In this document: positions 4,318-54,508 of the stretch, one piece after another
Position numbering within the stretch: the stretch's first letter is position 1
How the letters are laid out: the number at the start of each line of letters is the position of its first letter
Assembly: GCA_904420205.1 (NCBI GenBank)
Contig: CAJFUN010000028.1
Location: 4,568-68,567, forward strand
DNA: 64,000 nucleotides
From: Candidatus Parachristensenella avicola
GTDB lineage: Bacteria > Bacillota > Clostridia > Christensenellales > UMGS416
Reading direction: 5' to 3'
Notes under the pieces: model-generated
Database searches by the model: none
Told to the model about the DNA's origin: nothing
What the model saw: only the letters and a program-made list of their open reading frames with translations
Made by a program: the position numbers and the translations under genes

Positions 4318-5481
4318 TTAGTCATCCTGGTCATCGTCGTCCTGGTCATCGTCCCGGTCGTCGTCGTCCCGATCGTCGTCATCCTGGTCGTCGTCATCCT
4401 GGTCGTCGTCGTCCCGGTCGTCGTCGTCCCGATCGTCGTCGTCCCGATCGTCGTCGTCCCGATCGTCGTCGTCCCGATCGTCGTCGTCCCGGTCGTCGTC
4501 CCGGTCATCGTCGGCCAGGTCGTCGGCCAGGTCGTCGTCGTCACGGTCGTCGTCCTGGCCGTCGGCCCGGTCATCGTCGGCCCGATCGTCGTCGTCCTGG
4601 TCGTCGTCCTGGTCGTCGTCCCGGTCGTCGCCGGCCCGATCGTCGTCGTCCCGGTCATCGTCACGGTCGTCGTCGTCACGGTCGTCGTCCTGACCGTCGT
4701 CCCGGTCGTCGTCACGGTCGTCGTCCTGGCCGTCGGCCCGGTCATCGTCATCCTGGTCGTCATCCTGACCGTGGAGGGCATTCCAGTCATCGTTACCTTC
4801 AAAATCTGCTTCCAGGACCTTACCTGTACGGGCGTCTACTTCATATTCATACTCGATACCATTAGCAGAAAATTCGAATTCATAGACGCCGTCATCCAGT
4901 TCATATTCGTGATCCCTGAAAGAAGCGGATACCACGCCGAGTTGAGAAAGTACTAATTCTTTTGCTTTTTCCAGATTGATATAGCCATTATCATCCAAAT
5001 CTGTTTTCTGAATGGTCATAGCGGCCGACCCAATGCCGTGGGCTTTTACTGCTTCCCGGGCTTCATCTGCGATGCTTTCCAGGAAATCATCATCTGGATA
5101 CGCAGAGCCTTCCTCCAGTTTGAGTATGATGTTTTTTGCATGTCCATCCACTGTTTCTGCAAAAAAACCGGCTTCATAGATTTTTTGCACAAGTTCATTG
5201 ACAACGCTTTTGCATTCTTTGCCTTTGTATTCCGCAACTTCTGCTGCAACTGTTTTACCGTCGTCGTTCATACCTTCGATTTCAAGCACAAATCCATTCT
5301 CGTCGTATTCAATCTTTATTTCAGGATTTATGCTTAGCAGCACCGTTCCTGCTACTTTACTTTCAGCTACAGGCGATGACATCTCCATGGTTTGCGACGC
5401 ACCGCATCCCGTAAGAAGCGTCAGTGCTAAGGCGGTCGTGACAGTCAGTGCAAGCGTCTTCCTCAAGTTCATCTTTTTCAT
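4318..5481 (-). CDS. lipoprotein with an RsgI-like Asn-Pro domain, a PepSY domain and a ~150-aa poly-Asp C-terminal tail
   Basis: ATG 5481 (MKKMNLRK..) has an AAAGGAGAA RBS. Lipobox LLTGC. The segment LLSINPEIKIEYDENGFVLEIEGMNDDGK aligns with the ectodomain of the upstream anti-sigma factor. PepSY-like EYELDDGVYEFEFSANGIEYEYEVDARTGKVL. The tail consists of DDDDR/DDDDQ units. Confidence 0.8.
   Translation of the reverse strand: MKKMNLRKTLALTVTTALALTLLTGCGASQTMEMSSPVAESKVAGTVLLSINPEIKIEYDENGFVLEIEGMNDDGKTVAAEVAEYKGKECKSVVNELVQKIYEAGFFAETVDGHAKNIILKLEEGSAYPDDDFLESIADEAREAVKAHGIGSAAMTIQKTDLDDNGYINLEKAKELVLSQLGVVSASFRDHEYELDDGVYEFEFSANGIEYEYEVDARTGKVLEADFEGNDDWNALHGQDDDQDDDDRADGQDDDRDDDRDDGQDDDRDDDDRDDDRDDDDRAGDDRDDDQDDDQDDDDRADDDRADGQDDDRDDDDLADDLADDDRDDDRDDDDRDDDDRDDDDRDDDDRDDDDRDDDDQDDDDQDDDDRDDDDRDDDQDDDDQDD
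4321..4773 (-). repeat. coding tandem repeat with 15-bp period (GAC GAC GAC GAT CGG = DDDDR) and degenerate variants
   Basis: Four perfect units cccgatcgtcgtcgt at 4428-4487 on the + strand, flanked by many near-copies. Encodes about 151 aa of D/R/Q/A/G only. Confidence 0.9.
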
Positions 5482-5603: not shown

Positions 5604-6689
5604 CTACTTATCATCCAAATCGTCCCCGGCGTCGTCATCGTCGTCCCCGGCATCGTCGTCATCGCCGTCCCCGGCGTCGTCGTCATCGTCGTCCCCGGCA
5701 TCGTCGTCGTCTCCGGCATCGTCGTCATCGCCGTCCCCGGCGTCGTCATCGTCGTCTCCGGCATCGTCATTGTCGTCTCCGGCATCGTCATTGTCGTCCC
5801 CGGCATCCCCGGCATCCCCAGCATCGTCGTCATCGCCGTCCCCGGCGTCGTCAGCGTCGTCCCCGGCATCGTCGTCATCGCCGTCCCCGGCGTCGTCAGC
5901 GTCGTCCCCGGCATCGTCGTCCCCGGCGTCGTCATCGTCGTCCCCGGCATCGCCGTCCTCGGCGTCGTCATCGTCGTCCCAGTTGTCCTCAGTTCCATGG
6001 TCCCTCTGCCCCGGGTTTTCATTGCCCTCAATATCACTTCGCCCAGGGGTTTGCGCCGGTATAAAATCATCGGGGTTAATCACAATTGTCCATGAAATAT
6101 CAGATGGCTCCTCAGAACTTTCACTCGGTATGACCACAACATTGACACGGTTATCAAAATGTTCTTTTAATTCCGACACTAAAGTTTTCTCAATATCCGC
6201 TTTCCACTTTTCATGCTTAGAGTCCACGGCCAGCATAATTTGGCCGCCCTCACTAAGAAATCCCATGTCCATAGCCCGGTCGCTTAGGTCATCGGATACT
6301 ATTTCAACGGTTTTACCATAGAAGCGATAGTCCTCAATAAGCATTTTACCGTCCTCATTCATGCCTTCTAAGCCGACAATCCGGTTGAAATGGTTCACGC
6401 ACATTTGAACATCGGGGTTAATCCGTATCCGCACCGTTCCTGCTGGTGACCGCCAAAATCCCCAGCATCCAAGGATCATCACGCATAAGCATGCCGCTAT
6501 CGCCGTCCATTGTGTAAAATGCCTTTTATTATCGCGCCGCCTAGCAAGCGCATCCTGAAGAATCACCCGGTCCACTACTTCCCCAACATCATAGCCCAGA
6601 TTCGGGATTTTCAAAAAGCGTCCCTCTTTATCCAAAACGACAGCATAGCTGAAACCGCATTCCACCACAAGATATTCCATCCGCCTCAC
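5604..6689 (-). CDS. rsgI: anti-sigma-I factor RsgI-like, with a ~125-aa poly-Asp (DDDDAG) C-terminal tail
   Basis: The N-terminus (..YAVVLDKEGRFLKIPNLGYDVGEVV) resembles the RsgI N-domain. It has a single TM (WTAIAACLCVMILGCWGFW) followed by VRIRINP (Asn91-Pro92 = 6414-6419). The GTG start overlaps the sigI stop (GTGA); an alternative ATG lies at 6680. Confidence 0.7.
   Translation of the reverse strand: MRRMEYLVVECGFSYAVVLDKEGRFLKIPNLGYDVGEVVDRVILQDALARRRDNKRHFTQWTAIAACLCVMILGCWGFWRSPAGTVRIRINPDVQMCVNHFNRIVGLEGMNEDGKMLIEDYRFYGKTVEIVSDDLSDRAMDMGFLSEGGQIMLAVDSKHEKWKADIEKTLVSELKEHFDNRVNVVVIPSESSEEPSDISWTIVINPDDFIPAQTPGRSDIEGNENPGQRDHGTEDNWDDDDDAEDGDAGDDDDDAGDDDAGDDADDAGDGDDDDAGDDADDAGDGDDDDAGDAGDAGDDNDDAGDDNDDAGDDDDDAGDGDDDDAGDDDDAGDDDDDDAGDGDDDDAGDDDDDAGDDLDDK
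5607..5981 (-). repeat. coding low-complexity repeat (D/A/G); includes a perfect 45-bp tandem duplication at 5821-5910
   Basis: 5821-5865 and 5866-5910 are identical (gcatcgtcgtcatcgccgtccccggcgtcgtcagcgtcgtccccg). Confidence 0.9.
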
Positions 6690-7414
6690 GCCCCTTTCCC
6701 CGATGTGATCTGGCTAAGGTGCCCTCGAATTATTTCATACCCATTGGTATATGCAAGCAGGAGCGCCACAAGATATTTTCGATGCCGCTCCAATGTTTTC
6801 TTCTCCACGCCAGCGCCTTCTGCCAGCGCCGATAGCGGTAATTTCCCGCTCGCAACAAATTGGTCTAAAAGAATCCGCTCCTTGCGGGCATAAGCCAATA
6901 CCTGATGGCACGCTTTCATTGTTCGCGCCTGTTTGGGGCAATTATCCGCGACATCCGTCAGCCTAAGGCCATATTGCGAAAGCTGTCGGGAAAATTCCAA
7001 AATCTCCTCTTTTGCAGCATTCCGCGCATGGCGGTGGGCAATTTCATCGTGTCCCGCATCGATTTTTTCCAGAAGCGTCCGGCTTTTTCCCTCATCACCC
7101 ATGCGCTGATCCAAAGAGATCATGCCAGTATGCCGCTTTTCCTTGCGGCGATAATCAATAAGCCTATTGCGGATAACCACCGCAGCGAACTTTAAGAACG
7201 AGCCCTTCTTCTGCACATAGGCCATCGCCGCTTCATGGAACGCAAACATCGCGACATTCAATTCATCATCCTGCCCCGCAATTGGCATCCTTTTTAAGAA
7301 CCTCGCCGTTTCTGATTGAATGTATGGGAAGTATTCCCGCACAAGCGCATCTGCTGCCTGCGCATCCATTTTAGACCCATATACCCGATTCACAATTTCG
7401 TGCTCCGTTTTCAT
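6686..7414 (-). CDS. sigI: RNA polymerase sigma-I factor
   Basis: 242 aa. The region-2 segment NVAMFAFHEAAMAYVQKKGSFLKFAAVVIRNRLIDYRRKE closely parallels B. subtilis SigI as I recall it. The stop overlaps the rsgI-like start. RBS AGGAG upstream of ATG 7414. Confidence 0.8.
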   Translation of the reverse strand: MKTEHEIVNRVYGSKMDAQAADALVREYFPYIQSETARFLKRMPIAGQDDELNVAMFAFHEAAMAYVQKKGSFLKFAAVVIRNRLIDYRRKEKRHTGMISLDQRMGDEGKSRTLLEKIDAGHDEIAHRHARNAAKEEILEFSRQLSQYGLRLTDVADNCPKQARTMKACHQVLAYARKERILLDQFVASGKLPLSALAEGAGVEKKTLERHRKYLVALLLAYTNGYEIIRGHLSQITSGKGA

Positions 7415-7579
7415 TAACGCACTCCTGTCTACATATAGGATACGATGGCCCCATGCTTTTTACAGGGTTTTGACATCCATAAATTCAAATAAACCCATTA
7501 TGGACTGTATACAGGATTGGTAAATTTATTGTCATTGCAGGGTAAAATTCATGTAAACCTATTGCAGCAGATACACCGC

Positions 7580-7608
7580 AAAAAAAACGGGCCAAAGCCC
7601 GTTTTTTT
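7580..7608 (-). terminator. intrinsic terminator (bidirectional shape) after the membrane-protein gene
   Basis: A8-cgggc-caaa-gcccg-T7 at 7580-7608, 17 nt downstream of the stop at 7625. Confidence 0.8.
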
Positions 7609-7624
7609 AATAAATAATCATTGA

Positions 7625-8320
7625 CTAAGCCTGGCTTCGAGGCCAGCGCAGCGGGAAGTAGCCGATGACCGCAATAAGCAGCGCGCCCAAGGCATCCACG
7701 ATTAGGTCTTTCATGGTATCCAGCAGGGCTGCCCGGCCTACCAAGGGCGTACCGTCCTCCACGGCAAAGTGCTGCATGTTCATCGAAAGCAGGCCGTCCA
7801 TCAGGTATTCGTAAATCTCCCATACCGCTCCGCAGGCCAGCGCAAAGCAAAAGGCGAAAAAGGCCACAAAGCCCGGGCTTAAATTCATCTTGACGTTGGG
7901 CGCGTCATTCAGCAGGTTCACAAGCACAAATCCCAGCGCGCCCAACATGGCCCCGCTAAAGCCGTGCAAAATGGTGTCCCAATGGGGCACTGCGTAGTAA
8001 AAATTCCGCACCTCACCCAAATACACTGCGCAATAAAGAAAAGCGAAGTAGAGCACATACATATAGTTGGGAATCTCCAGGCGAAAGCGCCGTTCCAGCA
8101 CAGAGGGCAGAAACATCACGATGATGGCCATCAGGCACTGTACCAGCATCAACGTATAGTCGCTTTTGATCTTGGCGTGCGGATCCCCGGCAGGCGCTAC
8201 GGCAGGCGAGCGGATCATGCAGGTCACTGCATAGCCAATGGAAAACAGCAGCGAAAAAAAGAGGATAACGCCGATGATCTTCTTCCATGGCACAGCGGGC
8301 CGCTTTCCGTTTCGTTTCAT
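7625..8320 (-). CDS. polytopic membrane protein, function unknown
   Basis: 231-aa ORF with about 6 hydrophobic segments. I do not recognise the family with confidence. Confidence 0.7.
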   Translation of the reverse strand: MKRNGKRPAVPWKKIIGVILFFSLLFSIGYAVTCMIRSPAVAPAGDPHAKIKSDYTLMLVQCLMAIIVMFLPSVLERRFRLEIPNYMYVLYFAFLYCAVYLGEVRNFYYAVPHWDTILHGFSGAMLGALGFVLVNLLNDAPNVKMNLSPGFVAFFAFCFALACGAVWEIYEYLMDGLLSMNMQHFAVEDGTPLVGRAALLDTMKDLIVDALGALLIAVIGYFPLRWPRSQA

Positions 8321-8453: not shown

Positions 8454-8483
8454 TTGACAGCGCAGCCAAAATGTTTGTACACT
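8454..8483 (+). promoter_or_regulatory. sigma-70-type promoter candidate for the MarR-ABC operon
   Basis: TTGACA (8454-8459), 18-nt spacer, TACACT (8478-8483). Confidence 0.45.
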
Positions 8484-8488
8484 AACAA

Positions 8489-8504
8489 TTAGTTTAAAAA
8501 CTAA
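8489..8504 (+). promoter_or_regulatory. inverted repeat, candidate MarR operator
   Basis: ttagttt-aa-aaactaa (7-bp arms) between the -10 box and the RBS of the MarR gene. Confidence 0.45.
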
Positions 8505-8528
8505 TAAATTGGAAAGGATGAGACGCAC

Positions 8529-8987
8529 ATGCCCGCAAACGCCAAACGCTGCTCCCGCAAACCCACTTGTGTGATGCTGATTAACGAAATCTCTAAGCTT
8601 TTCCATGACCGCATGCGCCAGAAAAGCGAACGCTCCAATTTCAAACCGACCTATCAATCCATCCTGCGAGTCGTGGCTCACGAACCCGGCCTTAGCCAGC
8701 TGGAAATTGCCAGCCGCGTACACCTGGCCCCGCCCACCGTCAGCCTGGCCCTTCAAAAGATGGAAGCGGAAGGGCTCATCCGCCGCGAACCCGATGCCCG
8801 CGATCTCCGCCAGGTTCTTGTCTTTCTCACCGATACGGGCCGCGAAATGGACGACGTTATGCGCCATACGGCGGAAAGCACAGATAAGCTCATCACCAAG
8901 GGGCTGACCCGGGAAGAGCTGGATACGATATACCCGATCCTCCTAAAGATGCGCGATAACATCATAGAGGGCGGGCCAATTAAATGA
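8529..8987 (+). CDS. MarR family transcriptional regulator
   Basis: 152 aa with a winged-HTH pattern (LSQLEIASRVHLAPPTVSLALQKMEAEGLIRREPDARDLRQVLVFLT). The stop overlaps the next start (ATGA). Confidence 0.85.
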   Translation: MPANAKRCSRKPTCVMLINEISKLFHDRMRQKSERSNFKPTYQSILRVVAHEPGLSQLEIASRVHLAPPTVSLALQKMEAEGLIRREPDARDLRQVLVFLTDTGREMDDVMRHTAESTDKLITKGLTREELDTIYPILLKMRDNIIEGGPIK

Positions 8988-10714
8988 AACGAATTTTAAG
9001 CTACCTTAAGCCCTATTGGCTTCTCGCGCTCCTGACGCCCGTTACGATGGTGGTAGAAGTGCTGGTGGACCTCATGCAGCCTACGCTGATGAGCCGCATC
9101 GTCGACGCCGGTGTTCTGGCAGGCGATATGCAGGTGATTATCTCGACAGGGCTGACCATGCTCGGTCTGGTGGTCGTGGGCGGGTTGGGCGGCGTTGGCT
9201 CCGCCGCCTTTGGCAGCATGGCCTCCCAGCGTTTCGGCAACGATCTGCGCCAAGCAGTATTCAGCCGCGTGATGGCGCTCTCTTTCCAGCAGACGGATAC
9301 CTTTACCACCGGCAGCCTGGTGACCCGGCTGACCAACGACTGCCAAATGGTGCAGGAGATGGTCAACCAGGTGCTGCGTATGTTCGTTCGCTCCTTTATG
9401 CTCTTTGCCGGCGGCATTATCATGGCCCTGTCGTTGAATGTGAGCTTCGGGCTGGTGCTGCTGGTAGGCCTGCCGCTTCAGCTCATTATTCTTTTTATCT
9501 TCCTGAAGAAGGCCAGCCCTCTGTTTGGCAAGGTTCAGTCCCGCTTGGACCGTGTCAACTCCGTAGTTCAGGAAAACGTTACCGGGGCCCGCGTGGTCAA
9601 GGCCTATGTGCGGGAAGATTACGAGATTGACCGCTTCACACAGGCCAATGAAGCCCTGGTGGCCACCAATCTTAAAGTGCAAAAGCTGATGAGCCTAATG
9701 ATGCCCATCATGATGATAATCATGAACTTTTCCGTAGTCGCCATTATCATCATCGGCGGCTTTCAGGTAGAGGCCCAGGCCATGCAGGTAGGCCAGGTCA
9801 TGGCCGCCGTCACCTATGTATCCCAAATTCTGATGAGCATGATGATGGTGGCCATGATGTTCCAAATGGTATCCCGGGCCATGGCCTCCGCTCAGCGCAT
9901 CGTGGAGGTGCTGGAGACCGATCCGGCCGTGGTATCCGGCGGCCGGGCCCTCCCTGGGGGCGGCCGCGGCAGCGTCACCTTTGAACACGTCAGCTTCCAC
10001 TATCCCGCTTCCTCCCACCGTCCAGTGCTGGTGGACATTGATCTGGCCATTCGCCCCGGGGAAAACTTCGCCATATTGGGATCCACCGGCTCTGGCAAGA
10101 CTTCCTTGGTGAACCTTATCCCCCGTTTCTACGACGCAAGCGAAGGCACAATCCGGATCGACGGCGAAGACGTACGCGACCTAACGCTTTCCAGCCTGCG
10201 CGCCCGCGTCGGAATGGTGCTGCAAAAAAGCGAGCTTTTCTCCGGTACCATCGCCGATAACATCCGCTGGGGCAACAGCGAAGCTACTGACGACGAAGTA
10301 AGGCAAGCCGCGCGTATTGCGCAAGCGCACGATTTTATCATGGGCTTTTCCGAAGGATACGATACCGTCATCGGGGAAAAGGGTTCCTCCCTCTCCGGCG
10401 GGCAGAAGCAGCGGCTGGCCATTGCCCGGGCTATACTTAAGCGCCCGGAAATCCTTATTTTTGACGACTCCACCTCGGCCTTGGATCTTGGCACAGAGGC
10501 GCGGCTGCAGCAGGCGCTGCGCCAAGCGCTCAAAGGCACGACCGTCATCACCATCGCTCAGCGTGTAGCCTCTGTCTCCAACGCTGACCGGATTGCCGTG
10601 CTGGACCATGGCCGCTTGGCCGCCTGCGGTTCTCACGAGGAACTGATGGCCTCCAGCGACATTTACCAGGATATCTACAGCTCCCAGATGCGAAAGGAGG
10701 CCGTCAATGAGTAA
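8984..10714 (+). CDS. ABC exporter, fused permease/ATPase subunit (type I, heterodimer partner 1)
   Basis: 576 aa. Six-TM N-half, Walker A GSTGSGKTS, signature LSGGQKQR, Walker B ILIFDDSTS. Confidence 0.9.
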   Translation: MKRILSYLKPYWLLALLTPVTMVVEVLVDLMQPTLMSRIVDAGVLAGDMQVIISTGLTMLGLVVVGGLGGVGSAAFGSMASQRFGNDLRQAVFSRVMALSFQQTDTFTTGSLVTRLTNDCQMVQEMVNQVLRMFVRSFMLFAGGIIMALSLNVSFGLVLLVGLPLQLIILFIFLKKASPLFGKVQSRLDRVNSVVQENVTGARVVKAYVREDYEIDRFTQANEALVATNLKVQKLMSLMMPIMMIIMNFSVVAIIIIGGFQVEAQAMQVGQVMAAVTYVSQILMSMMMVAMMFQMVSRAMASAQRIVEVLETDPAVVSGGRALPGGGRGSVTFEHVSFHYPASSHRPVLVDIDLAIRPGENFAILGSTGSGKTSLVNLIPRFYDASEGTIRIDGEDVRDLTLSSLRARVGMVLQKSELFSGTIADNIRWGNSEATDDEVRQAARIAQAHDFIMGFSEGYDTVIGEKGSSLSGGQKQRLAIARAILKRPEILIFDDSTSALDLGTEARLQQALRQALKGTTVITIAQRVASVSNADRIAVLDHGRLAACGSHEELMASSDIYQDIYSSQMRKEAVNE

Positions 10715-49345: not shown

Positions 49346-49422
49346 TCTGCAGGAAGCGGCTATAAAAAGGCGTATTCATTGAAACGTCTCCAAGTTTAAT
49401 CCAAAACAATGATTAGCTTACT

Positions 49423-49466
49423 GGGGAATGAGTCCGGCCAAGGCCGGAATCATTCCCCTCGTTTTA
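49423..49466 (+). terminator. intrinsic terminator after the dehydratase gene
   Basis: 17-bp stem with one mismatch (ggggaatgagtccggcc / ggccggaatcattcccc) followed by tcgtttta. Confidence 0.7.
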
Positions 49467-49494
49467 TTGCACATACACATAGAAGAAATATACA

Positions 49495-49523
49495 TTGACA
49501 ATAAAACGAATATTTGATAATGT
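49495..49523 (+). promoter_or_regulatory. sigma-70 promoter of leader copy A
   Basis: TTGACA (49495-49500), 17-nt spacer, TG-a-TAATGT (-10 at 49518-49523). Confidence 0.65.
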
Positions 49524-49622
49524 GAAATTGGATAAAATAACCAAAATTATGACAAATCCTCCGAACTGCTCTGCCCCAAAAGGAGATAAAAGATGAGAAG
49601 GAAGGGAGAAAAAGAAAGCAAC

Positions 49623-49673
49623 CCGGCCAGCCAGGCGGGCGCGAAGCGCTCTGTTTGGTGTGGCCGGTTTTTT
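49623..49673 (+). terminator. leader (attenuator) terminator, copy A
   Basis: Outer stem ccggcca (49623-49629) / tggccgg (49661-49667), inner gcgc-gaa-gcgc hairpin, then T6 (49668-49673). Located between the promoter and the AGGAGG SD of the 49712 gene. Confidence 0.7.
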
Positions 49674-49711
49674 AATAAAGGGGAGCCAAAGGGGACAAAA
49701 AGGAGGAGCGT

Positions 49712-50656
49712 ATGAAAAAGCGGACAAAAGCAGAAGGACAAATCCATGAGAAGGGAACGGAAGGACAAACGAGCCAAGAAAAGAAGGGGCGGCTGGCGAG
49801 GGCGGCTGCAAGAGGGGCTAGTCGGCTGCGGCGGGCGGCAGGCTGGCTGGGGGGAAGAAAGCGATGGGAGAAATGGACCTTGGGATGCGGATGTGCGCTG
49901 GCAGCAATTGCCGCCACGGCGCTGATCCTGCATCTGAACGGATTTGTTTTCGACCACAAATGCCAGCTTCCCAGGGCCGGATCGGTTTACAAAGTCGTTT
50001 ATTCGGATCCGGATCCGAAAAGGGGTGATGTCATTTACCGCGCATTATGCCGGAGTGAACCTACGCCCCCGGATTGTGACTATCCCTGGATATTGGAGGA
50101 CTACGAAGGTGAATTTACACCTGCTCAAGGGATGGGGTACAACATTACCGCACTCTGCGAGGTGGAATACCTGCACATTGTAAACTGTGTACAGGAAAGC
50201 ACCGGGGAGGACTACCGAGCGTCGCAATACAAGCAGCTGTTTACCCTTATGGAATGCCGGGTCATCCGGGTGCTGGCCGAGCGAGAGGACATGATGGAGA
50301 CGCCGCTCCGGGAAGGGGACGTCATAACCGTGTTCCAAAGAGGGAACTCAAAGGTGCAGTATTTTAACACTGCGCCTTATAAGGAGGGGGCACGCGCGGT
50401 GCTTGGCATCCTACCCACCACCTATTGGACCGATCGAAGCCCGGATCAGCTGCGTGTATACAATAGCCAATACAGGGCTATGCATTCCGTCCCGGTTGTC
50501 ATTGGAGAGGACGGGAAAAAAACGATTGAGGGCTTTACGGGATTCCAACTAAGGGATTCGTTCCAGCCGCTGGATCCCAATCGCCCTGCGCTGGACCAGC
50601 TGGGGGAATTTGTGCAGAGGAATATGGACGAGTTTGAATTCGTTACACCTTACTAA
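49712..50656 (+). CDS. hypothetical membrane-anchored protein (basic N-tail, one TM, ~230-aa ectodomain)
   Basis: 314 aa. AAAGGAGG RBS. TM WTLGCGCALAAIAATALILHL. No family recognised. Confidence 0.7.
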   Translation: MKKRTKAEGQIHEKGTEGQTSQEKKGRLARAAARGASRLRRAAGWLGGRKRWEKWTLGCGCALAAIAATALILHLNGFVFDHKCQLPRAGSVYKVVYSDPDPKRGDVIYRALCRSEPTPPDCDYPWILEDYEGEFTPAQGMGYNITALCEVEYLHIVNCVQESTGEDYRASQYKQLFTLMECRVIRVLAEREDMMETPLREGDVITVFQRGNSKVQYFNTAPYKEGARAVLGILPTTYWTDRSPDQLRVYNSQYRAMHSVPVVIGEDGKKTIEGFTGFQLRDSFQPLDPNRPALDQLGEFVQRNMDEFEFVTPY

Positions 50657-50676
50657 AGGGATTGGGGGGGAAGACC

Positions 50677-50796
50677 ATGAAGAAATTGCGGGCGTGTTTC
50701 GCCTCCATCTGTGCTCTGTTGTTTTTCGTCAGTCTGTGCCTTCCTGCCCGTGCCGAGCAGCGGATTACCGGCTGCGGTTTTTTAATGAAAACGTAA
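50677..50796 (+). CDS. 39-aa ORF: signal peptide + 13-aa C-terminal peptide (candidate secreted peptide)
   Basis: Not in the track. My translation is MKKLRACFASICALLFFVSLCLPARAEQRITGCGFLMKT. A G-rich RBS (ggggggg) lies 6 nt upstream. Its 3' end overlaps a weak hairpin + T6. Confidence 0.35.
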   Translation: MKKLRACFASICALLFFVSLCLPARAEQRITGCGFLMKT

Positions 50797-50806
50797 AGAA
50801 TATATA

Positions 50807-50835
50807 TTGAAAGTAAAACAAACATCTGATAATAT
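50807..50835 (+). promoter_or_regulatory. sigma-70 promoter of leader copy B
   Basis: TTGAAA (50807-50812), 17-nt spacer, TG-a-TAATAT (-10 at 50830-50835). Confidence 0.6.
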
Positions 50836-50935
50836 GAAATTGGATATAATAACTAAAATCATAACGCAATCCTCCGAACGGCTCTGTCTCAAGAGGAGAT
50901 AAAAGATGAGAAGGAAGCGAGAAAAAGGAAGCAAC

Positions 50936-50986
50936 CCGGCCATCCAGGCGGGCGCGAAGCGCTCTGTTTGGTGTGGCCGGTTTTTT
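50936..50986 (+). terminator. leader (attenuator) terminator, copy B
   Basis: Same hairpin as copy A (one substitution in the internal part) followed by T6 (50981-50986). Confidence 0.7.
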
Positions 50987-51169
50987 AATAAAAGGGGAGC
51001 CAAGAGGAACAAAAAGGAGGAGAACATGAAAAAGAGGACAGAGCAAGAACCCGTGACGTGACAAGGAAGCAAGCAGCCCCGGCGCGTGGGTATTATGGTG
51101 AAGAGGCGTAACCTCAAAGGAGGAGCCGGTTCTCAAACAATTTACCCAGATATGATAAAGGAGGCACAT

Positions 51170-51643
51170 ATGAACGATTCTGATTGGGCGCTTATACCTG
51201 ACTTCTACAAATTCCCGTTCATAGTACGAAATCTTTATATGATCGAGCTGCTTCTAACTTTGCCAGCCCTAGCTATTGAAATAATACATTACAAGAATAC
51301 AACCATTTTTACGTTTTGTATATTATACATTATAATTAGCCTGATTTGTTATATTTTGACGCGCATGAAGCTTAAGTATACAGATGAAGGACTTATGAAA
51401 TATATAAGAGTATATGATTGTTATTCATTTATAATTGCAGTAATAGGTATCGCGGCATTAATATTAAGATGGAATATGTATATAACTTACGAAGAATTTG
51501 AAATTCTCTTTTTAGTGTGGTTTATTCCAATTCAAATATTTAGAATTTGCTTCTCACGATTTTATCAGAACAAGTATCTCCCCAAATTTGCGTCAGAGCT
51601 TGACGAGAAGTCGGCCACCGCTAAAAAGGAGAAAGAAAAATGA
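51170..51643 (+). CDS. AT-rich 4-TM membrane protein, unknown family
   Basis: ATG 51170 (MNDSDWAL..) has an AAAGGAGG RBS. 157 aa, about 30% GC by eye. Its stop overlaps the next start (ATGA at 51640-51643). Confidence 0.7.
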   Translation: MNDSDWALIPDFYKFPFIVRNLYMIELLLTLPALAIEIIHYKNTTIFTFCILYIIISLICYILTRMKLKYTDEGLMKYIRVYDCYSFIIAVIGIAALILRWNMYITYEEFEILFLVWFIPIQIFRICFSRFYQNKYLPKFASELDEKSATAKKEKEK

Positions 51644-54438
51644 AAAAGCGTTATATATTGAAGGGACTATCCTTGGGATTAGTGTTCTGTTTGCTTATCT
51701 TCCTGTGCCCGAATCCCTCCTACGCAGAAAACGCCGAATGGAAAGAATACACCTACGAGACAACCCGGGACGGCCGGCCTGCCATTGAAGTGCACCGCAT
51801 AAAGAAGGGACAGGCGCACGTTCTGTTGTATGTGGACGGCATCCTCGTGGAAGAGGCCCATGCAAACGCCTATACAAAGCAGGTATCCCATACTGTGCAT
51901 GACGGGCGCAACCTACAGGATGCCCCTGTTATCCGTAAAAATGCGTCTGCCGGTTTCACTGTTACTACCCGCCATGCCGCATCCAAAGCTCCGCTGAAAA
52001 AAACAGAAACACTCATGCCAATTCCTAATCCGGAAGAAGAAGCCGCAAAAGCGCCCCAAACTATCGATACTTCCCCTTCGACTCCAGCTGCCTCAACTGA
52101 AACTACCGGAAGCACAAGCGCTCAAACGGATGAAGCGGCTACCCAGTCCAGTACTCCTACCGGTTTAGCTGTGCCGCTTGCCACGGACAGTATAGCGGAT
52201 GGTCAGCCACCTTCCGGCGGCATACCGTCCAACTCGCTTCACGCCTTTGACAGCGTTGGGGATCAGGATGAAATCAGCCCTTCAACTGCTCCGAATCACA
52301 CGGGGGATTGCCCGCCAGAGGACGAAAACTGTACAGAATCCCATACGGCGGATATACCTGTCCAGGACACGCCCGATTCCGAGGATTCATCTGAAGCTAT
52401 TGGCCTGCCAGAACTATCCTCTCCTCAGAATGCTGGCGCTGTTTCCTATCCGCCGCTGATCGAAACAGGGAGCGAACCGCTTACCAGCAACGCAGGTCTT
52501 ACCGCCGCCGGAGACGGTTGGTATTCGTTAGGCTGGGCCGGCGGATACATAGAAGCGCCCTATATCTATGGGAATCTGCAGCGCCAGTACTCGACATCTT
52601 CAGAGAGGGTCCATGTATTCAATTTTGAAATGAATGAGACGCGAATAACGGTTATATCCATTATTGAGGCTGTGCTAACAACTGCAGGATTATTTGATAT
52701 GATTTTATCCGGCGCTATAAATCCTAGAGATGTTGTTAGCTATATACTGGCTGCAATTACATTTGTAGGTGATATTATTCATGAGACTCAAACAGTAGAA
52801 GTCGACGCGCTCCACTATACATACAATTACCGTACCATGGTCAACGGGAACAGCCATTATACGAGCCAGCGGCAAACAGAATATGTGTATACATACAACA
52901 AAACTACCGGAGTAAGAGAACTGAAATACCTAGGATATACCATTGCGGGCGCTTTACATAACAGCGACATGGTGGAATTAGGAATTGACCACTACTTAGC
53001 CACCGAGCACACGACGCATGTTGATTGCCCCATTTGCCCAATATGCGGAATTCAGCGCATGGGTTATTCTCATCTTTTCAGCGGTACATATGAAACCACG
53101 CCGGCACAACATATCCAGACATGCATACGTTGTGGGATAAAAGAACCGGCTGATCACATATTTAGCCCCGCGCAAAAAAATGATGCCCAAACACATAAAC
53201 GAACCTGTGCCGTATGCGGCTATATTGAAATGACCAATCATGCCTTTGGCGCGTATAGTACACCTCTTGGCGCTGACATTCACCAAAGAACATGCTCTGG
53301 ATGCGGTTATATTGATTCTGGCGCCCATGCTTGGGTATGCAGCAGCGTCAGCGCAAGCCAACATGCCATGACATGCAGCGTATGCCAAGCCACAAGTACA
53401 GTGAATCATACATGGGGATCGTATGCTATGGTTAGCAATTCACAGCATAGACGAACCTGCACGGCGAATGGTTGCACCCAAATTGAGACGTCGTCCCACA
53501 CCATCACCTCGACCCGACCGCTGACGGAAGCGGGCCAGGAAGGGTATCATGAGAACTACTGCGCCACCTGCGGCGGCCGCTGGAACGAGGCCCACACCTA
53601 TGGCAGCTATACCGATAGCTCCGCCAGCGTCCACGTGCGCACCTGCGTCAAGTGCGGCAAGGAAAACTATCAGGCCCATTCCTGGAGCAGCTATAGCTCC
53701 ACCGGCTCCACCCAGCACCAGCGCACCTGCACCGTCTCCACCTGCGGACGCACCCAAACCAGCAACCATACCTGGGGCAGCTACAACTACCTAAGCGCTA
53801 CGTATCACAAGAGGAGCTGCACCGCCTCGGGCTGTACTGCCTCGCAGAACGCCGGCCACAGCATTACCCGCGTCACCTCGCTGGATGGGACAAACCACCA
53901 GAACTACTGCTCCACCTGCAACGGATACTGGAACGTGGCCCATACTCTGACGGTGCTTACGCCCTATGGCAACGCCACCAAGCATCTGGCAGGCTGCACA
54001 AAGTGCAATTATTCGATTGCCCAAAACCATACCTTCGGGGCATGGGTCAATTACAGCAGCACCCTGCACCGGCACCAATGCACCGGCTGCAAGGAATACC
54101 ATACGGCCAGCCACGGCAGCTATGGCTCCTGGACCAACTACTCTTCCAGCCAGCACCGCAGAAAGTGCGGCTCCTGCACCTATTACCAATACGGCAGCCA
54201 TGGCAGCTACGGTTCCTGGGCCAATTATTCCTCCAGCCAGCACCGCAGAAAGTGCGGCTCCTGCACCTATTACCAATACGGCAGCCACATCTATGGCTCC
54301 AACAGCTACTATTCCTCCACCCAACACCGCAAGAAGTGCGCCAGCTGCCCCCGATACGTCTATGCGAATCACAGCTACCAGTATTCCGGCGGCTACCTGC
54401 GCTGCACAGGCTGCGGCCATGAGAAGCCCTATGCGTAA
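51640..54438 (+). CDS. large secreted protein with a C-terminal array of ~17 His/Cys (zinc-knuckle-like) repeats
   Basis: 932 aa. Signal peptide (..CPNPSYA/EN), an S/T/P/E/D-rich linker, a central region with two hydrophobic helices, then the repeat array (aa 458-932). Confidence 0.85.
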   Translation: MKKRYILKGLSLGLVFCLLIFLCPNPSYAENAEWKEYTYETTRDGRPAIEVHRIKKGQAHVLLYVDGILVEEAHANAYTKQVSHTVHDGRNLQDAPVIRKNASAGFTVTTRHAASKAPLKKTETLMPIPNPEEEAAKAPQTIDTSPSTPAASTETTGSTSAQTDEAATQSSTPTGLAVPLATDSIADGQPPSGGIPSNSLHAFDSVGDQDEISPSTAPNHTGDCPPEDENCTESHTADIPVQDTPDSEDSSEAIGLPELSSPQNAGAVSYPPLIETGSEPLTSNAGLTAAGDGWYSLGWAGGYIEAPYIYGNLQRQYSTSSERVHVFNFEMNETRITVISIIEAVLTTAGLFDMILSGAINPRDVVSYILAAITFVGDIIHETQTVEVDALHYTYNYRTMVNGNSHYTSQRQTEYVYTYNKTTGVRELKYLGYTIAGALHNSDMVELGIDHYLATEHTTHVDCPICPICGIQRMGYSHLFSGTYETTPAQHIQTCIRCGIKEPADHIFSPAQKNDAQTHKRTCAVCGYIEMTNHAFGAYSTPLGADIHQRTCSGCGYIDSGAHAWVCSSVSASQHAMTCSVCQATSTVNHTWGSYAMVSNSQHRRTCTANGCTQIETSSHTITSTRPLTEAGQEGYHENYCATCGGRWNEAHTYGSYTDSSASVHVRTCVKCGKENYQAHSWSSYSSTGSTQHQRTCTVSTCGRTQTSNHTWGSYNYLSATYHKRSCTASGCTASQNAGHSITRVTSLDGTNHQNYCSTCNGYWNVAHTLTVLTPYGNATKHLAGCTKCNYSIAQNHTFGAWVNYSSTLHRHQCTGCKEYHTASHGSYGSWTNYSSSQHRRKCGSCTYYQYGSHGSYGSWANYSSSQHRRKCGSCTYYQYGSHIYGSNSYYSSTQHRKKCASCPRYVYANHSYQYSGGYLRCTGCGHEKPYA
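53011..54435 (+). repeat. tandem ~26-30-aa coding repeats with consensus H-[TS]-[WF]-G-S-[YW]-x3-S-x2-Q-H-x-R-x-C-x2,3-C-x6,7
   Basis: 17 CxxC/CxxxC pairs, each preceded by H-x3 and followed by H after about 7 residues, e.g. QHRRKCGSCTYYQYGSH and THKRTCAVCGYIEMTNH. Includes an 87-bp tandem duplication at 54109-54282. Confidence 0.9.
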
Positions 54439-54465
54439 GCCTTAAACCGCTCCCCCTATCACAAA

Positions 54466-54501
54466 AACCGTCTTCATCCGCAAGCGGATGAAGACGGTTT
54501 T
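54466..54501. terminator. bidirectional terminator between convergent genes
   Basis: Perfect 16-bp stem aaccgtcttcatccgc / gcggatgaagacggtt, with an A-run upstream and T-run downstream. Confidence 0.9.
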
Positions 54502-54508
54502 CTCTAAA

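Follow-up and report, generated by a model that had tools for sequence, protein, structure and literature searches.

What can a secreted bacterial protein do with a C terminus that consists of one long string of histidine/cysteine modules? The question is raised by a gene of the uncultured gut bacterium Candidatus Parachristensenella avicola (Clostridia; Christensenellales) on contig CAJFUN010000028.1 of assembly GCA_904420205.1. It lies in a stretch of 64,000 nucleotides (nt), positions 4,568 to 68,567 of the forward strand, which we analyzed as a whole and call the window; coordinates are those of the window unless another locus is named. A first-pass annotation had placed here a 932-amino-acid (aa) open reading frame (ORF) at 51640-54438 and had read it as a Sec-secreted protein in which a long S/T/P/D/E linker leads to a tandem His/Cys array. 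The ORF, the linker, and the array are present as described, and the N terminus, on reading, looks like a Sec signal peptide with no lipobox (Table 1). We find that the repeat defines a genuine, widespread, and uncurated family. From sequence and modeling, its units likely belong to a known kind, zinc-ribbon-like knuckle modules, deployed here in tandem as an extracellular stalk; the new part would be a metal site shared by consecutive repeats.

A regular array of His/Cys units

The array spans aa 457-932 and contains 17 Cys pairs (14 CxxC and 3 C-x4-C), 15 of which stand in units matching H-x3-C-x2/4-C-x7-H. Cut at the first His, the units are 27 to 32 aa long; H1, H14, C18, and C21 are invariant in 15 of 15 canonical units, with exactly two His and two Cys per unit, and one of the two invariant His opens an aromatic H-[TS]-[WF]-G-S-[YW] segment. 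The H-x3-C motif was observed 15 times, compared to a mean of 0.027 and a maximum of 2 when aa 458-932 were shuffled 20,000 times with composition preserved. The initial count of 17 CxxC/CxxxC pairs was right in number, with the correction that the long form is C-x4-C and not CxxxC. The accompanying suggestion that ligand sets share histidines fares less well: two His and two Cys per unit is a stoichiometry that needs no sharing, and the proposed grouping is probably wrong. Toward the end of the array, units 14 to 16 carry a net charge of +3 to +4 and 5 to 6 aromatic (Tyr/Trp) residues each, and the C-terminal cap recurs nearly identically in three other proteins (P0002, P0152, and P0266).

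Two familiar kinds of His/Cys protein were considered and rejected. A multiheme c-type cytochrome would require CxxCH, which is absent (the second Cys is followed by G, N, Q, K, T, or P). A classical C2H2 beta-beta-alpha finger, in which the spacing is C-x2-4-C-x12-H-x3-5-H and both His sit on an alpha-helix, does not fit the ligand order found here (H...H-x3-C-x2-C) or the predicted structure, which contains no helix.

Residues 1-457 gave no match in Pfam, NCBIfam, or PHROGs, and their homologues are the same gene in other strains only; the "head" (aa 291-456) has no homologue outside the same gene among 1.84 billion representative proteins, and an AlphaFold2 (AF2) model of aa 291-470 built from two sequences is unreliable (predicted local distance difference test [pLDDT], 43). 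We recognized no adhesive domain in aa 1-457, and no LPXTG motif, SLH, dockerin, or cohesin domain, or C-terminal transmembrane (TM) helix was found in the protein. An AGGAG motif lies about 8 nt upstream of the ORF start, and the protein is identical to P0272 (NCBI and ENA; 73-kb contig).

A widespread repeat family without a curated description

A word-index search with the full-length protein returned solely an 89%-identical orthologue, and a genome-collection scan with the same query returned no match; the family was exposed by a search with the repeat region and by exhaustive HMMER. The latter, with aa 291-932 as the query against the 1.84 billion representative proteins, matched 420 clusters at E ≤ 1e-3, of which 130 reach E ≤ 1e-10 and 26 reach E ≤ 1e-30. 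Among the matches listed, all align through the repeat region except one fragment of the same gene. The array had first been called unusual; with 420 representative clusters it is not rare, and these clusters bear out the accompanying suggestion of Cys/His/Trp repeats in large surface proteins of gut Clostridia. The named sources of relatives are metagenome-assembled genomes (MAGs) of gut Clostridia and Clostridiales, together with one Treponemataceae MAG. The taxonomic picture is thin, because a genome-collection scan with a tighter alignment gave three Clostridia MAG loci only.

Most relatives appear to be exported: a signal peptide was found in 122 of the 149 that start with Met. They range from 300 to more than 6,000 aa; the strict motif gives a median of 8 canonical units, and a looser count gives as many as about 120. 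A consensus built from 310 canonical units, H-[ST]-[FY]-G-x-W-[TS]-x5-[TQ]-H-x-R-T-C-x-x-C-G-x-x-E-T-x-x, is acidic (rich in D, E, and T). Partner domains among 50 relatives include dockerin (16), lectin-like (10), peptidase C1 (9), cohesin (6), and BspA-type LRR (LRR_5; 5), along with CHAP, Rv2525c/GH25-like, S8 subtilase, M10 matrixin, S1-like peptidase, Big_2, and Flg_new domains, and some relatives carry SLH. A dockerin directly follows the array in seven proteins, and P0168 and P0125 have the layout signal peptide, cohesin, array, C-terminal TM helix. In some 40 of 157 relatives the array closes the protein and no other anchor is present; LPXTG was found in none of the 157.

Curated annotation is nearly absent from these repeats. 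The 932-aa protein has nothing above threshold in Pfam, NCBIfam, or PHROGs (best, DUF7479; E = 0.027), the arrays of two giant relatives (4,175 and 4,301 aa) have no Pfam annotation, and over the repeats of 50 relatives we found one borderline HEWD match and stray DUF2387 and DUF7837 matches. Array segments searched alone gave scattered sub-threshold matches to HEWD, DUF7685, and many zinc-ribbon and zinc-finger families of Pfam and NCBIfam. Literature searches on DUF7479, on HEWD, on zinc ribbons together with repeats, dockerin, adhesin, or stalk, and on His-Cys repeats found no description of the repeat. Assignment to an already characterized family had been named as the result that would undo the claim of novelty; Pfam, NCBIfam, and PDB hold no model of the repeat.

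HEWD (PF20576), a bacterial repeat family for which we know of no experimentally defined function, comes closest. No other curated family touches the arrays repeatedly; HEWD has 27.5 bits on P0002 (cutoff, 27) over H-x3-C-x2-C-G...H-x-Y-x-x-W...H-x3-C and weaker matches on P0012, P0155, and 3 of 16 array segments. However, the window protein has no HEWD match at E ≤ 1 and aa 797-932 have none at E ≤ 0.1, and neither the giant members nor 49 of the 50 relatives are annotated by it; the current HEWD model therefore misses the 28-residue H/H/C/C unit.

Variant units also occur. In the two cohesin proteins P0168 and P0125, the 28-residue unit alternates strictly with a unit of about 40 residues, H-x-W-[DN]-x-G-x-V-T-K-x-A-T-C-x-E-x-G-x-x-T-Y-T-C-x-x-C, in which Cys takes the place of H14 and an extra hairpin is inserted. 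The longer unit has no Pfam annotation in these proteins, and the idea that HEWD describes this "H-x-W-D...ATC..G..C..CG" unit was rejected, since HEWD matches none of the cohesin proteins. An LRR-type protein from a gut MAG (locus L006, 3870-5975) has a variant unit H-x5-C-x-C, for example, QHKRTVSCSCGYSTTEYANH; the family therefore has subtypes with other knuckle lengths.

Predicted fold of the unit

AF2 was given a 16-row alignment to which the window protein and its homologues contributed four-unit segments cut in register. The resulting model of aa 797-932 (four units plus the cap) is all-beta and confident (mean pLDDT, 94.4; 126 of 136 residues at 90 or above). A model of three to four repeats had been proposed as a check on the array, and it shows a chain of regular hairpin units. 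By DSSP, one pattern recurs in every unit: residue 3 makes an isolated bridge, residues 7-8 form a two-residue ladder, and strands at 13-18 and 24-28 are joined by a five-residue turn containing C18-x2-C21; the cap consists of H115 (model numbering), a hairpin (117-120/123-126) with a GG turn, a knuckle (C126-C129), and a strand (132-134). Taken with the covariation described below, this would make the C-terminal 476 residues a tandem series of zinc-ribbon-like mini-domains of about 28 residues. Each would be a three-stranded antiparallel beta-meander: a strand at 2-8 with Trp6 packed on Arg16/Glu25, a strand at 13-18, the CxxC knuckle, and a strand at 24-28.

The likeness to zinc ribbons (TFIIS/RPA12; Zn_Ribbon_1, DZR, and Zn_Ribbon_TF) lies in the CxxC(G) knuckle at a hairpin tip and the three-stranded antiparallel sheet of about 30 residues. 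Classical zinc ribbons, however, have two CxxC knuckles (Cys4), are self-contained, and are mostly intracellular binders of nucleic acid or protein. Here there is one CxxC per unit, the other two conserved residues are His, one of the two His at a site probably comes from the previous repeat, up to about 120 units run head to tail, and the protein is secreted.

Remote similarities are likewise to zinc knuckles, with no match to a zinc ribbon reaching significance. The best PDB sequence match is the RPA12 zinc ribbon (E = 0.12 with a single sequence and 0.009 with a profile), and stray sub-threshold zf-C2H2 matches occur in relatives. A Foldseek search of PDB with the array model gave nothing at E ≤ 1e-3, and its top rows are long alignments with a root mean square deviation (RMSD) of about 20 Å and are meaningless. 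Tight local superpositions were found only on the XPA zinc finger (30 to 32 residues; RMSD, 1.5 Å; probability, 0.8 to 0.9; E of about 1), and NCBIfam rad14 also matches below threshold. XPA/Rad14 is a single Cys4 finger of a nuclear DNA repair protein, unlike the array, and at an E value of about 1 the modeled superposition indicates a common knuckle-hairpin shape, not homology. One significant match was obtained in the viral structure database BFVD, to a fragment with an SLH domain, which is probably of bacterial type and probably carries a similar array. The sub-threshold zinc-ribbon and zinc-finger matches, together with the local fold match to XPA, make a His2Cys2 metal site in each unit plausible; the ion would be structural and presumably Zn2+.

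Which residues would form one metal site

Three groupings of the four invariant residues were compared: (a) H14, C18, and C21 with the next H1, as first proposed; (b) H1, H14, C18, and C21 of one unit; and (c) the previous H14 with H1, C18, and C21. The ends of arrays discriminate among them. Of the 33 protein-ending arrays, 29 close with a shortened H-x6-22-C-x2-C unit without the His at -4, and the remaining 4 are ORFs cut mid-array, so that all 29 complete ends lack H14 and keep H1 and both Cys. This favors (c), because the last unit is then complete and its own H14 is superfluous; (a) would leave the last knuckle without any His partner, and (b) would leave the last unit one ligand short for no apparent reason.

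The starts of arrays agree. Where no Cys pair lies in the preceding 45 residues, a Cys or His is found at -4 to -2 of H1 in 22 of 66 first units, compared to 18 of 738 internal units (odds ratio, 20; P = 1.4e-15), and only (c) requires such a surrogate ligand. In the window protein, C463 lies 15 residues before H478, which equals the spacing from H14 to the next H1, and from its position C463 could stand in for the absent upstream His.

Covariation by mutual information with average product correction, over 605 distinct units (effective number, 474), gave 16-25 as the top pair, with consensus Arg/Glu. This sets the hairpin register and places residue 14 opposite residue 27, at the end away from the knuckle. 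Pairs 6-16 and 6-25 assign Trp6 to the 16/25 face, and pairs 2-20, 2-19, and 3-23 set the neighbors of H1 against the knuckle of their own unit. By geometric inference, H14 would be too distant from its own C18 to share a metal, because four beta-strand residues span about 13 Å. Inter-unit pairs 8-23' and 12-23' agree with (c), but they are weak.

The interleaved site, H14 of unit i-1 with H1, C18, and C21 of unit i, is probably the correct assignment, because array ends, array starts, covariation, and the DSSP pattern all agree on it. Several observations nevertheless count against it. Two-thirds of first units show no obvious substitute ligand; the inter-unit covariation signal is weak (effective number, 155) and dominated by same-position pairs, that is, by repeat homogenization; and the basis of the assignment is secondary structure, covariation, and array-end statistics rather than coordinates.

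A proposed metal-stiffened stalk and its alternatives

Our preferred reading, to which sequence and model give somewhat better than an even chance, is that the tandem zinc-ribbon-like array serves as a metal-stiffened stalk or spacer. It is preferred because, across the family, arrays typically lie between a functional domain and a dockerin or TM anchor; the array would hold N-terminal functional domains off a C-terminal anchor. The metal, placed at the junction of two units, would staple neighbors into a stiff rod. With a rise of roughly 2 nm per unit, estimated from strand length only, 17 units would reach about 35 to 40 nm. The window array resembles known tandem-repeat stalks in having many units (17) modeled as a chain of hairpins, and its stalk role would be carried over by analogy from the relatives. 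Its basic, Tyr/Trp-rich last units may attach noncovalently to the cell envelope. Of the roles first suggested for the array, rigid spacer or stalk fits the family architectures best, and nothing links the array to metal capture or buffering.

A fuller version of the stalk, which sequence and model leave slightly short of an even chance, is that the shared metal bolts the repeats into a rod whose length is tuned as recombination adds or removes units (12 versus 17 in different strains; about 120 in giant relatives) and whose integrity is tied to zinc and redox conditions in the anaerobic gut lumen.

Three features of the window protein weigh against a stalk. It has none of the recognized anchors (LPXTG, SLH, dockerin, or C-terminal TM helix); its orphan head, with no homologue and an unreliable model, gives a stalk no recognizable cargo; and the gene is frameshifted in several strains and is therefore dispensable in at least some hosts.

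The main rival, or complement, is that the array or its basic aromatic C-terminal units form a noncovalent wall- or polysaccharide-binding module, comparable to choline-binding/CW_binding, GW, and SH3b modules, that tethers enzymes or the head. Judged from the sequences, we think this unlikely, while recognizing what speaks for it. The many array-terminated relatives otherwise lack an anchor, and the CHAP, Rv2525c/GH25-like, and C1, S8, M10, and S1-like peptidase partners belong to the hydrolases that commonly occur in fusion with wall-binding repeats. In protein-ending arrays, the last three units are more aromatic than in arrays followed by other domains (0.120 versus 0.094; P = 5e-4) and far less acidic (+0.05 versus -2.42 per 28 aa; P = 9e-8), in end-versus-internal composition tests that ignore phylogenetic non-independence. 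The charge and Tyr/Trp content of units 14 to 16 fit as well, and the cap SYQYSGGYLRC.GCGHEKPY[AS] stands almost unchanged behind unrelated N termini (P0002 and P0266). Against wall binding, the consensus unit of the family is acidic, many arrays precede a dedicated anchor (dockerin or TM helix) that would make it unnecessary, and the array common to P0266 and the window protein could reflect recent recombination.

The other alternatives concern the ligands themselves. With 17 His2Cys2 sets per secreted molecule, the array could be imagined as a sponge of exchangeable sites that captures, buffers, or stores zinc or another metal. This is very improbable: the ligands are built into a confidently predicted knuckle and strand, as those of structural sites typically are; the fusion partners across the family are enzymes, cohesins, and dockerins and not metal transport components; no metal transporter or regulator was found among the genes flanking the ORF; and unit number varies freely between strains, in some of which the gene is frameshifted. 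We give equally little credence to metal-free units in which CxxC forms disulfides and His serves packing or pH sensing. As far as sequence tells, the protein is extracellular, and CxxC pairs are capable of disulfide formation, but the hosts are strict gut anaerobes, in whose surroundings extracellular thiols stay reduced. Moreover, neither the 15 canonical units nor the relatives' segments in the 16-row alignment vary at the two His and two Cys positions, all remote similarities point to zinc knuckles, and the joint loss of H14 in terminal units would be explained by a shared metal site and not by disulfides.

Comparison with known systems

Interlocked metal sites are known from the cysteine-rich domain of DnaJ and from the cross-brace of RING domains, where ligand pairs that are not adjacent in sequence form the sites and successive motifs interlock. 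Unlike these closed two-zinc domains, the proposed interleaving of the array would run on open-endedly.

A functional analogy for the stalk would be the tandem Ig-like extender regions of RTX adhesins, rigidified by Ca2+, and cadherin-type repeats (PMC7493085). There, as proposed for the array, many small beta-rich repeats follow in tandem, a metal at or near each inter-repeat junction stiffens the chain, and distal domains are projected from the cell surface. These systems bind Ca2+ through Asp/Glu in beta-sandwiches of about 100 residues and belong to type-1-secreted adhesins of Gram-negative bacteria, whereas the array presumably binds Zn2+ through His/Cys in 28-residue knuckle hairpins of Clostridia, with a rigidity that is inferred.

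The stalks of Gram-positive fibrillar adhesins (DUF1542, Big, and SasG type; PMC9210967, PMC8286594) share tandem repeats, rapid evolution, and copy-number variation with the array, and one relative (P0036) carries DUF1542 together with a beta-helix. Known fibrillar stalk domains, however, are beta-sandwiches of 70 to 130 residues or helical bundles and include no metal-knuckle units. The survey of such stalks does not mention zinc or histidine and has "cysteine" solely in a cited title. The window protein further differs from fibrillar adhesins in having no recognizable adhesive domain or anchor, and from cellulosome and amylosome components in having no dockerin or cohesin, although 16 and 6 of the 50 relatives, respectively, do.

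If the stalk reading is correct, the long extracellular stalks of gut Clostridia are assembled from the smallest unit yet seen in such roles (28 residues with one metal each), in settings as varied as cohesin/dockerin scaffolds, secreted proteases, and LRR proteins. A metal common to neighboring repeats would be an unusual design, an open-ended interlocked zinc chain, and would tie the integrity of surface proteins to how much zinc is available and how reducing the habitat is. Arrays are unannotated in Pfam and NCBIfam in hundreds of proteins, some longer than 4,000 residues, and a dedicated profile would fill this gap in gut metagenomes. Being small, confidently predicted, and naturally variable in number, the unit would also suit protein engineering as a modular rigid spacer.

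Strain variation and apparent array exchange

A search for variation in unit copy number had been proposed as a check on the array, and strains with alleles of 17 and 12 units were found. P0274 and P0275 have 12 Cys pairs, compared to 17 in the window protein. They carry an exact in-register deletion of aa 645-760 (53572-53919), four units bounded by the 46-nt direct repeats of repeat family D5, and have lost one further unit, 29 residues within aa 855-884 (about 54202-54291), in the 64-nt repeat family D2. Judged from these breakpoints, the difference is unit copy-number variation by recombination between direct DNA repeats.

Between two strains, flanking housekeeping proteins are 99 to 100% identical, the array protein 87 to 95%, and two neighboring membrane proteins of 314 aa and 157 aa (see below) 89% and 100%, respectively. 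Divergence in the head is concentrated in aa 331-400 (52630-52839), which are 67% identical between strains, compared to 95 to 100% in the rest of the head. Two allele types of this hydrophobic, helix-hairpin-like patch occur, RITVISIIEAVLTTAGLFDMILSG...VVSYILAAITFVGDII and ...TTVTFHLIQSGVVSFTDVMGYIVDAITFINEMVY.

The reading frame itself also varies. In the syntenic locus L003, one extra A after window position ~51889 (CCCATA to CCCAATA) splits the gene into an 87-aa ORF (5781-6044), which carries the signal peptide, and a 714-aa ORF (6001-8145). In the shifted frame lie the starts of P0274, P0275, and P0276, three sequences from different assemblies; that of P0277 is an internal GTG. From the sequences, the allele with the additional A could be a frameshift or pseudogene, possibly reflecting phase variation, or an assembly error.

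The array also occurs behind other N termini. P0266 and P0267 are secreted proteins of 1134 to 1137 aa with a metzincin motif (HEMGHVLGMTH). The C-terminal ~311 aa of P0267 correspond to aa 620-932 of the window protein (53497-54438; 8469-9405 in paralogue locus L004) with 88.5% nucleotide identity, and the remainder of these proteins is unrelated to it. The same cap also ends P0002, which is otherwise 39% identical. On these sequence comparisons, the array appears to be swapped as a cassette between genes.

Organization of the locus

The array gene lies on the plus strand and belongs to the second of two cassettes; coordinates of its features are collected in Table 1.

Table 1. Features of the array gene and its surroundings in the window
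Feature	Coordinates	Strand	Basis or remark
Leader copy B: promoter-like site and conserved ~200-nt leader	50799..51049	+	Precedes 4-TM gene and 932-aa gene
157-aa protein, four predicted TM segments, GC 32%	51170..51643	+	ORF list; ATG after AAAGGAGG
932-aa secreted His/Cys-repeat protein, complete ORF including stop	51640..54438	+	ORF list; ATG start
Putative signal peptide, aa 1-29: MKKRYILK, hydrophobic core, SYA|EN	51640..51726	+	Read from translation
Basic N-terminal region, aa 30-130, pI 9.3	51727..52029	+	Composition
Acidic S/T/P/A-rich low-complexity linker, aa 131-290, pI 4.05; also D/E-rich	52030..52509	+	Composition
Orphan head, aa 291-456; two hydrophobic helix-like stretches, aa ~335-384	52510..53007	+	Homology search, AF2
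N-cap, aa 457-477: H457-x2-H460-x2-C463-x2-C466-x2-C469	53008..53070	+	Sequence
15 canonical units, aa 478-910: H1-x12(-16)-H14-x3-C18-x2/4-C21-x7	53071..54369	+	Sequence; AF2; family search
Pair of 46-nt direct DNA repeats (53552-53597, 53900-53945), 348 nt apart	53552..53945	+	Repeat family D5
Three 64-nt direct DNA repeats, 84-87 nt spacing, units 14-16	54117..54351	+	Repeat family D2
C-cap, aa 911-932: H911-x10-C922-x2-C925-G-H927-EKPYA	54370..54435	+	Shortened unit without -4 His
Terminator-like hairpin CCGTCTTCATCCGC-AA-GCGGATGAAGACGG, then TTTTCTC	54468..54503	.	Read from sequence

The gene is preceded by one for a small protein with four predicted TM segments (4-TM), whose stop codon overlaps its start (ATGA), which confirms the coupling first described. 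The ATG assigned to the 4-TM gene agrees with a 158-aa gene called in L003. The 4-TM protein has no Pfam domain and falls into just 4 clusters (76 to 99% identity) among 5.8 billion sequences. The G+C content of its gene is 0.323, compared to about 62% in the flanks, and its sequence is unchanged between two strains in which the adjacent surface genes differ by 5 to 13%. Neither of the two upstream neighbors of the array gene has an above-threshold match in Pfam, NCBIfam, or PHROGs; PADLOC was not searched.

This neighbor raises one more alternative: the head would be a membrane-active toxin or bacteriocin-like effector, the 4-TM protein its immunity factor, and the array a delivery device only. 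Translational coupling to a small 4-TM protein, the low G+C content of its gene, suggestive of foreign origin, and the hypervariable hydrophobic patch of the head would suit this idea, but we consider it highly unlikely: the 4-TM protein is invariant between strains in which the patch differs, which shows no covariation; its gene lies upstream and not downstream; in L004 the coupling is to another protein, with a single TM segment; the model of the head is unreliable; and Pfam and PHROGs were empty, with PADLOC and toxin-specific libraries not searched.

Leader, membrane protein, and secreted array protein form a recurring cassette. Leader copy B has a promoter-like TTGAAA-N17-TAATAT at 50807-50835, followed by a GC-rich hairpin (50950-50964) and a T-run, and is 84 to 90% identical to leader copy A (49487-49735). 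The promoter and leader, about 250 nt together, also occur twice in L003 (3621-3870 and 4940-5187) and twice in L004 (2721-2970 and 4500-4749), one before each cassette, with 84 to 96% identity across the three loci. Common to the copies are TTGACA/TTGAAA-N17-TAAT.T, the hairpin GGGCGCGAAGCGCTC nested in CCGGCC...GGCCGG, and the T-run. Rfam gave no match in the window or the leader region; from its sequence the duplicated leader looks like an attenuator or riboregulator.

Behind leader copy A sits the gene for the 314-aa single-TM protein (49712-50656). Two paralogues in L004 (2828-4279 and 4607-6004; 26 to 30% identity; 465 to 483 aa as called) have the same leader, and the second is ATGA-coupled to P0267, the metzincin protein with the array. 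Leader copy B retains a truncated start of the 314-aa gene (MKKRTEQEPVT*, 51027-51062). Between the 314-aa gene and leader copy B lies a 39-aa ORF, MKKLRACFASICALLFFVSLCLPARAEQRITGCGFLMKT* (50678-50797), that looks like a signal peptide with a short tail, and L004 has in the matching relative place a 62-aa ORF copying the N terminus of P0267; judged from sequence, both may be leftovers of duplicated 5' ends.

The segment that holds the two cassettes (49400-54500) has a G+C content of 0.47 to 0.52 per 2-kb bin, compared to 0.58 to 0.60 in the flanks, and its proteins diverge between strains much faster than those of flanking metabolic genes. Because of this lower G+C content and faster divergence, the segment is consistent with an accessory surface-protein island. 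The flanking genes encode SDR, enolase-superfamily, APH, M42 peptidase, and ADP-ribosylglycohydrolase proteins. The terminator-like hairpin downstream, absent from the hairpin-scan list on account of its loop of less than 3 nt, separates the array gene from the convergent APH-family gene.

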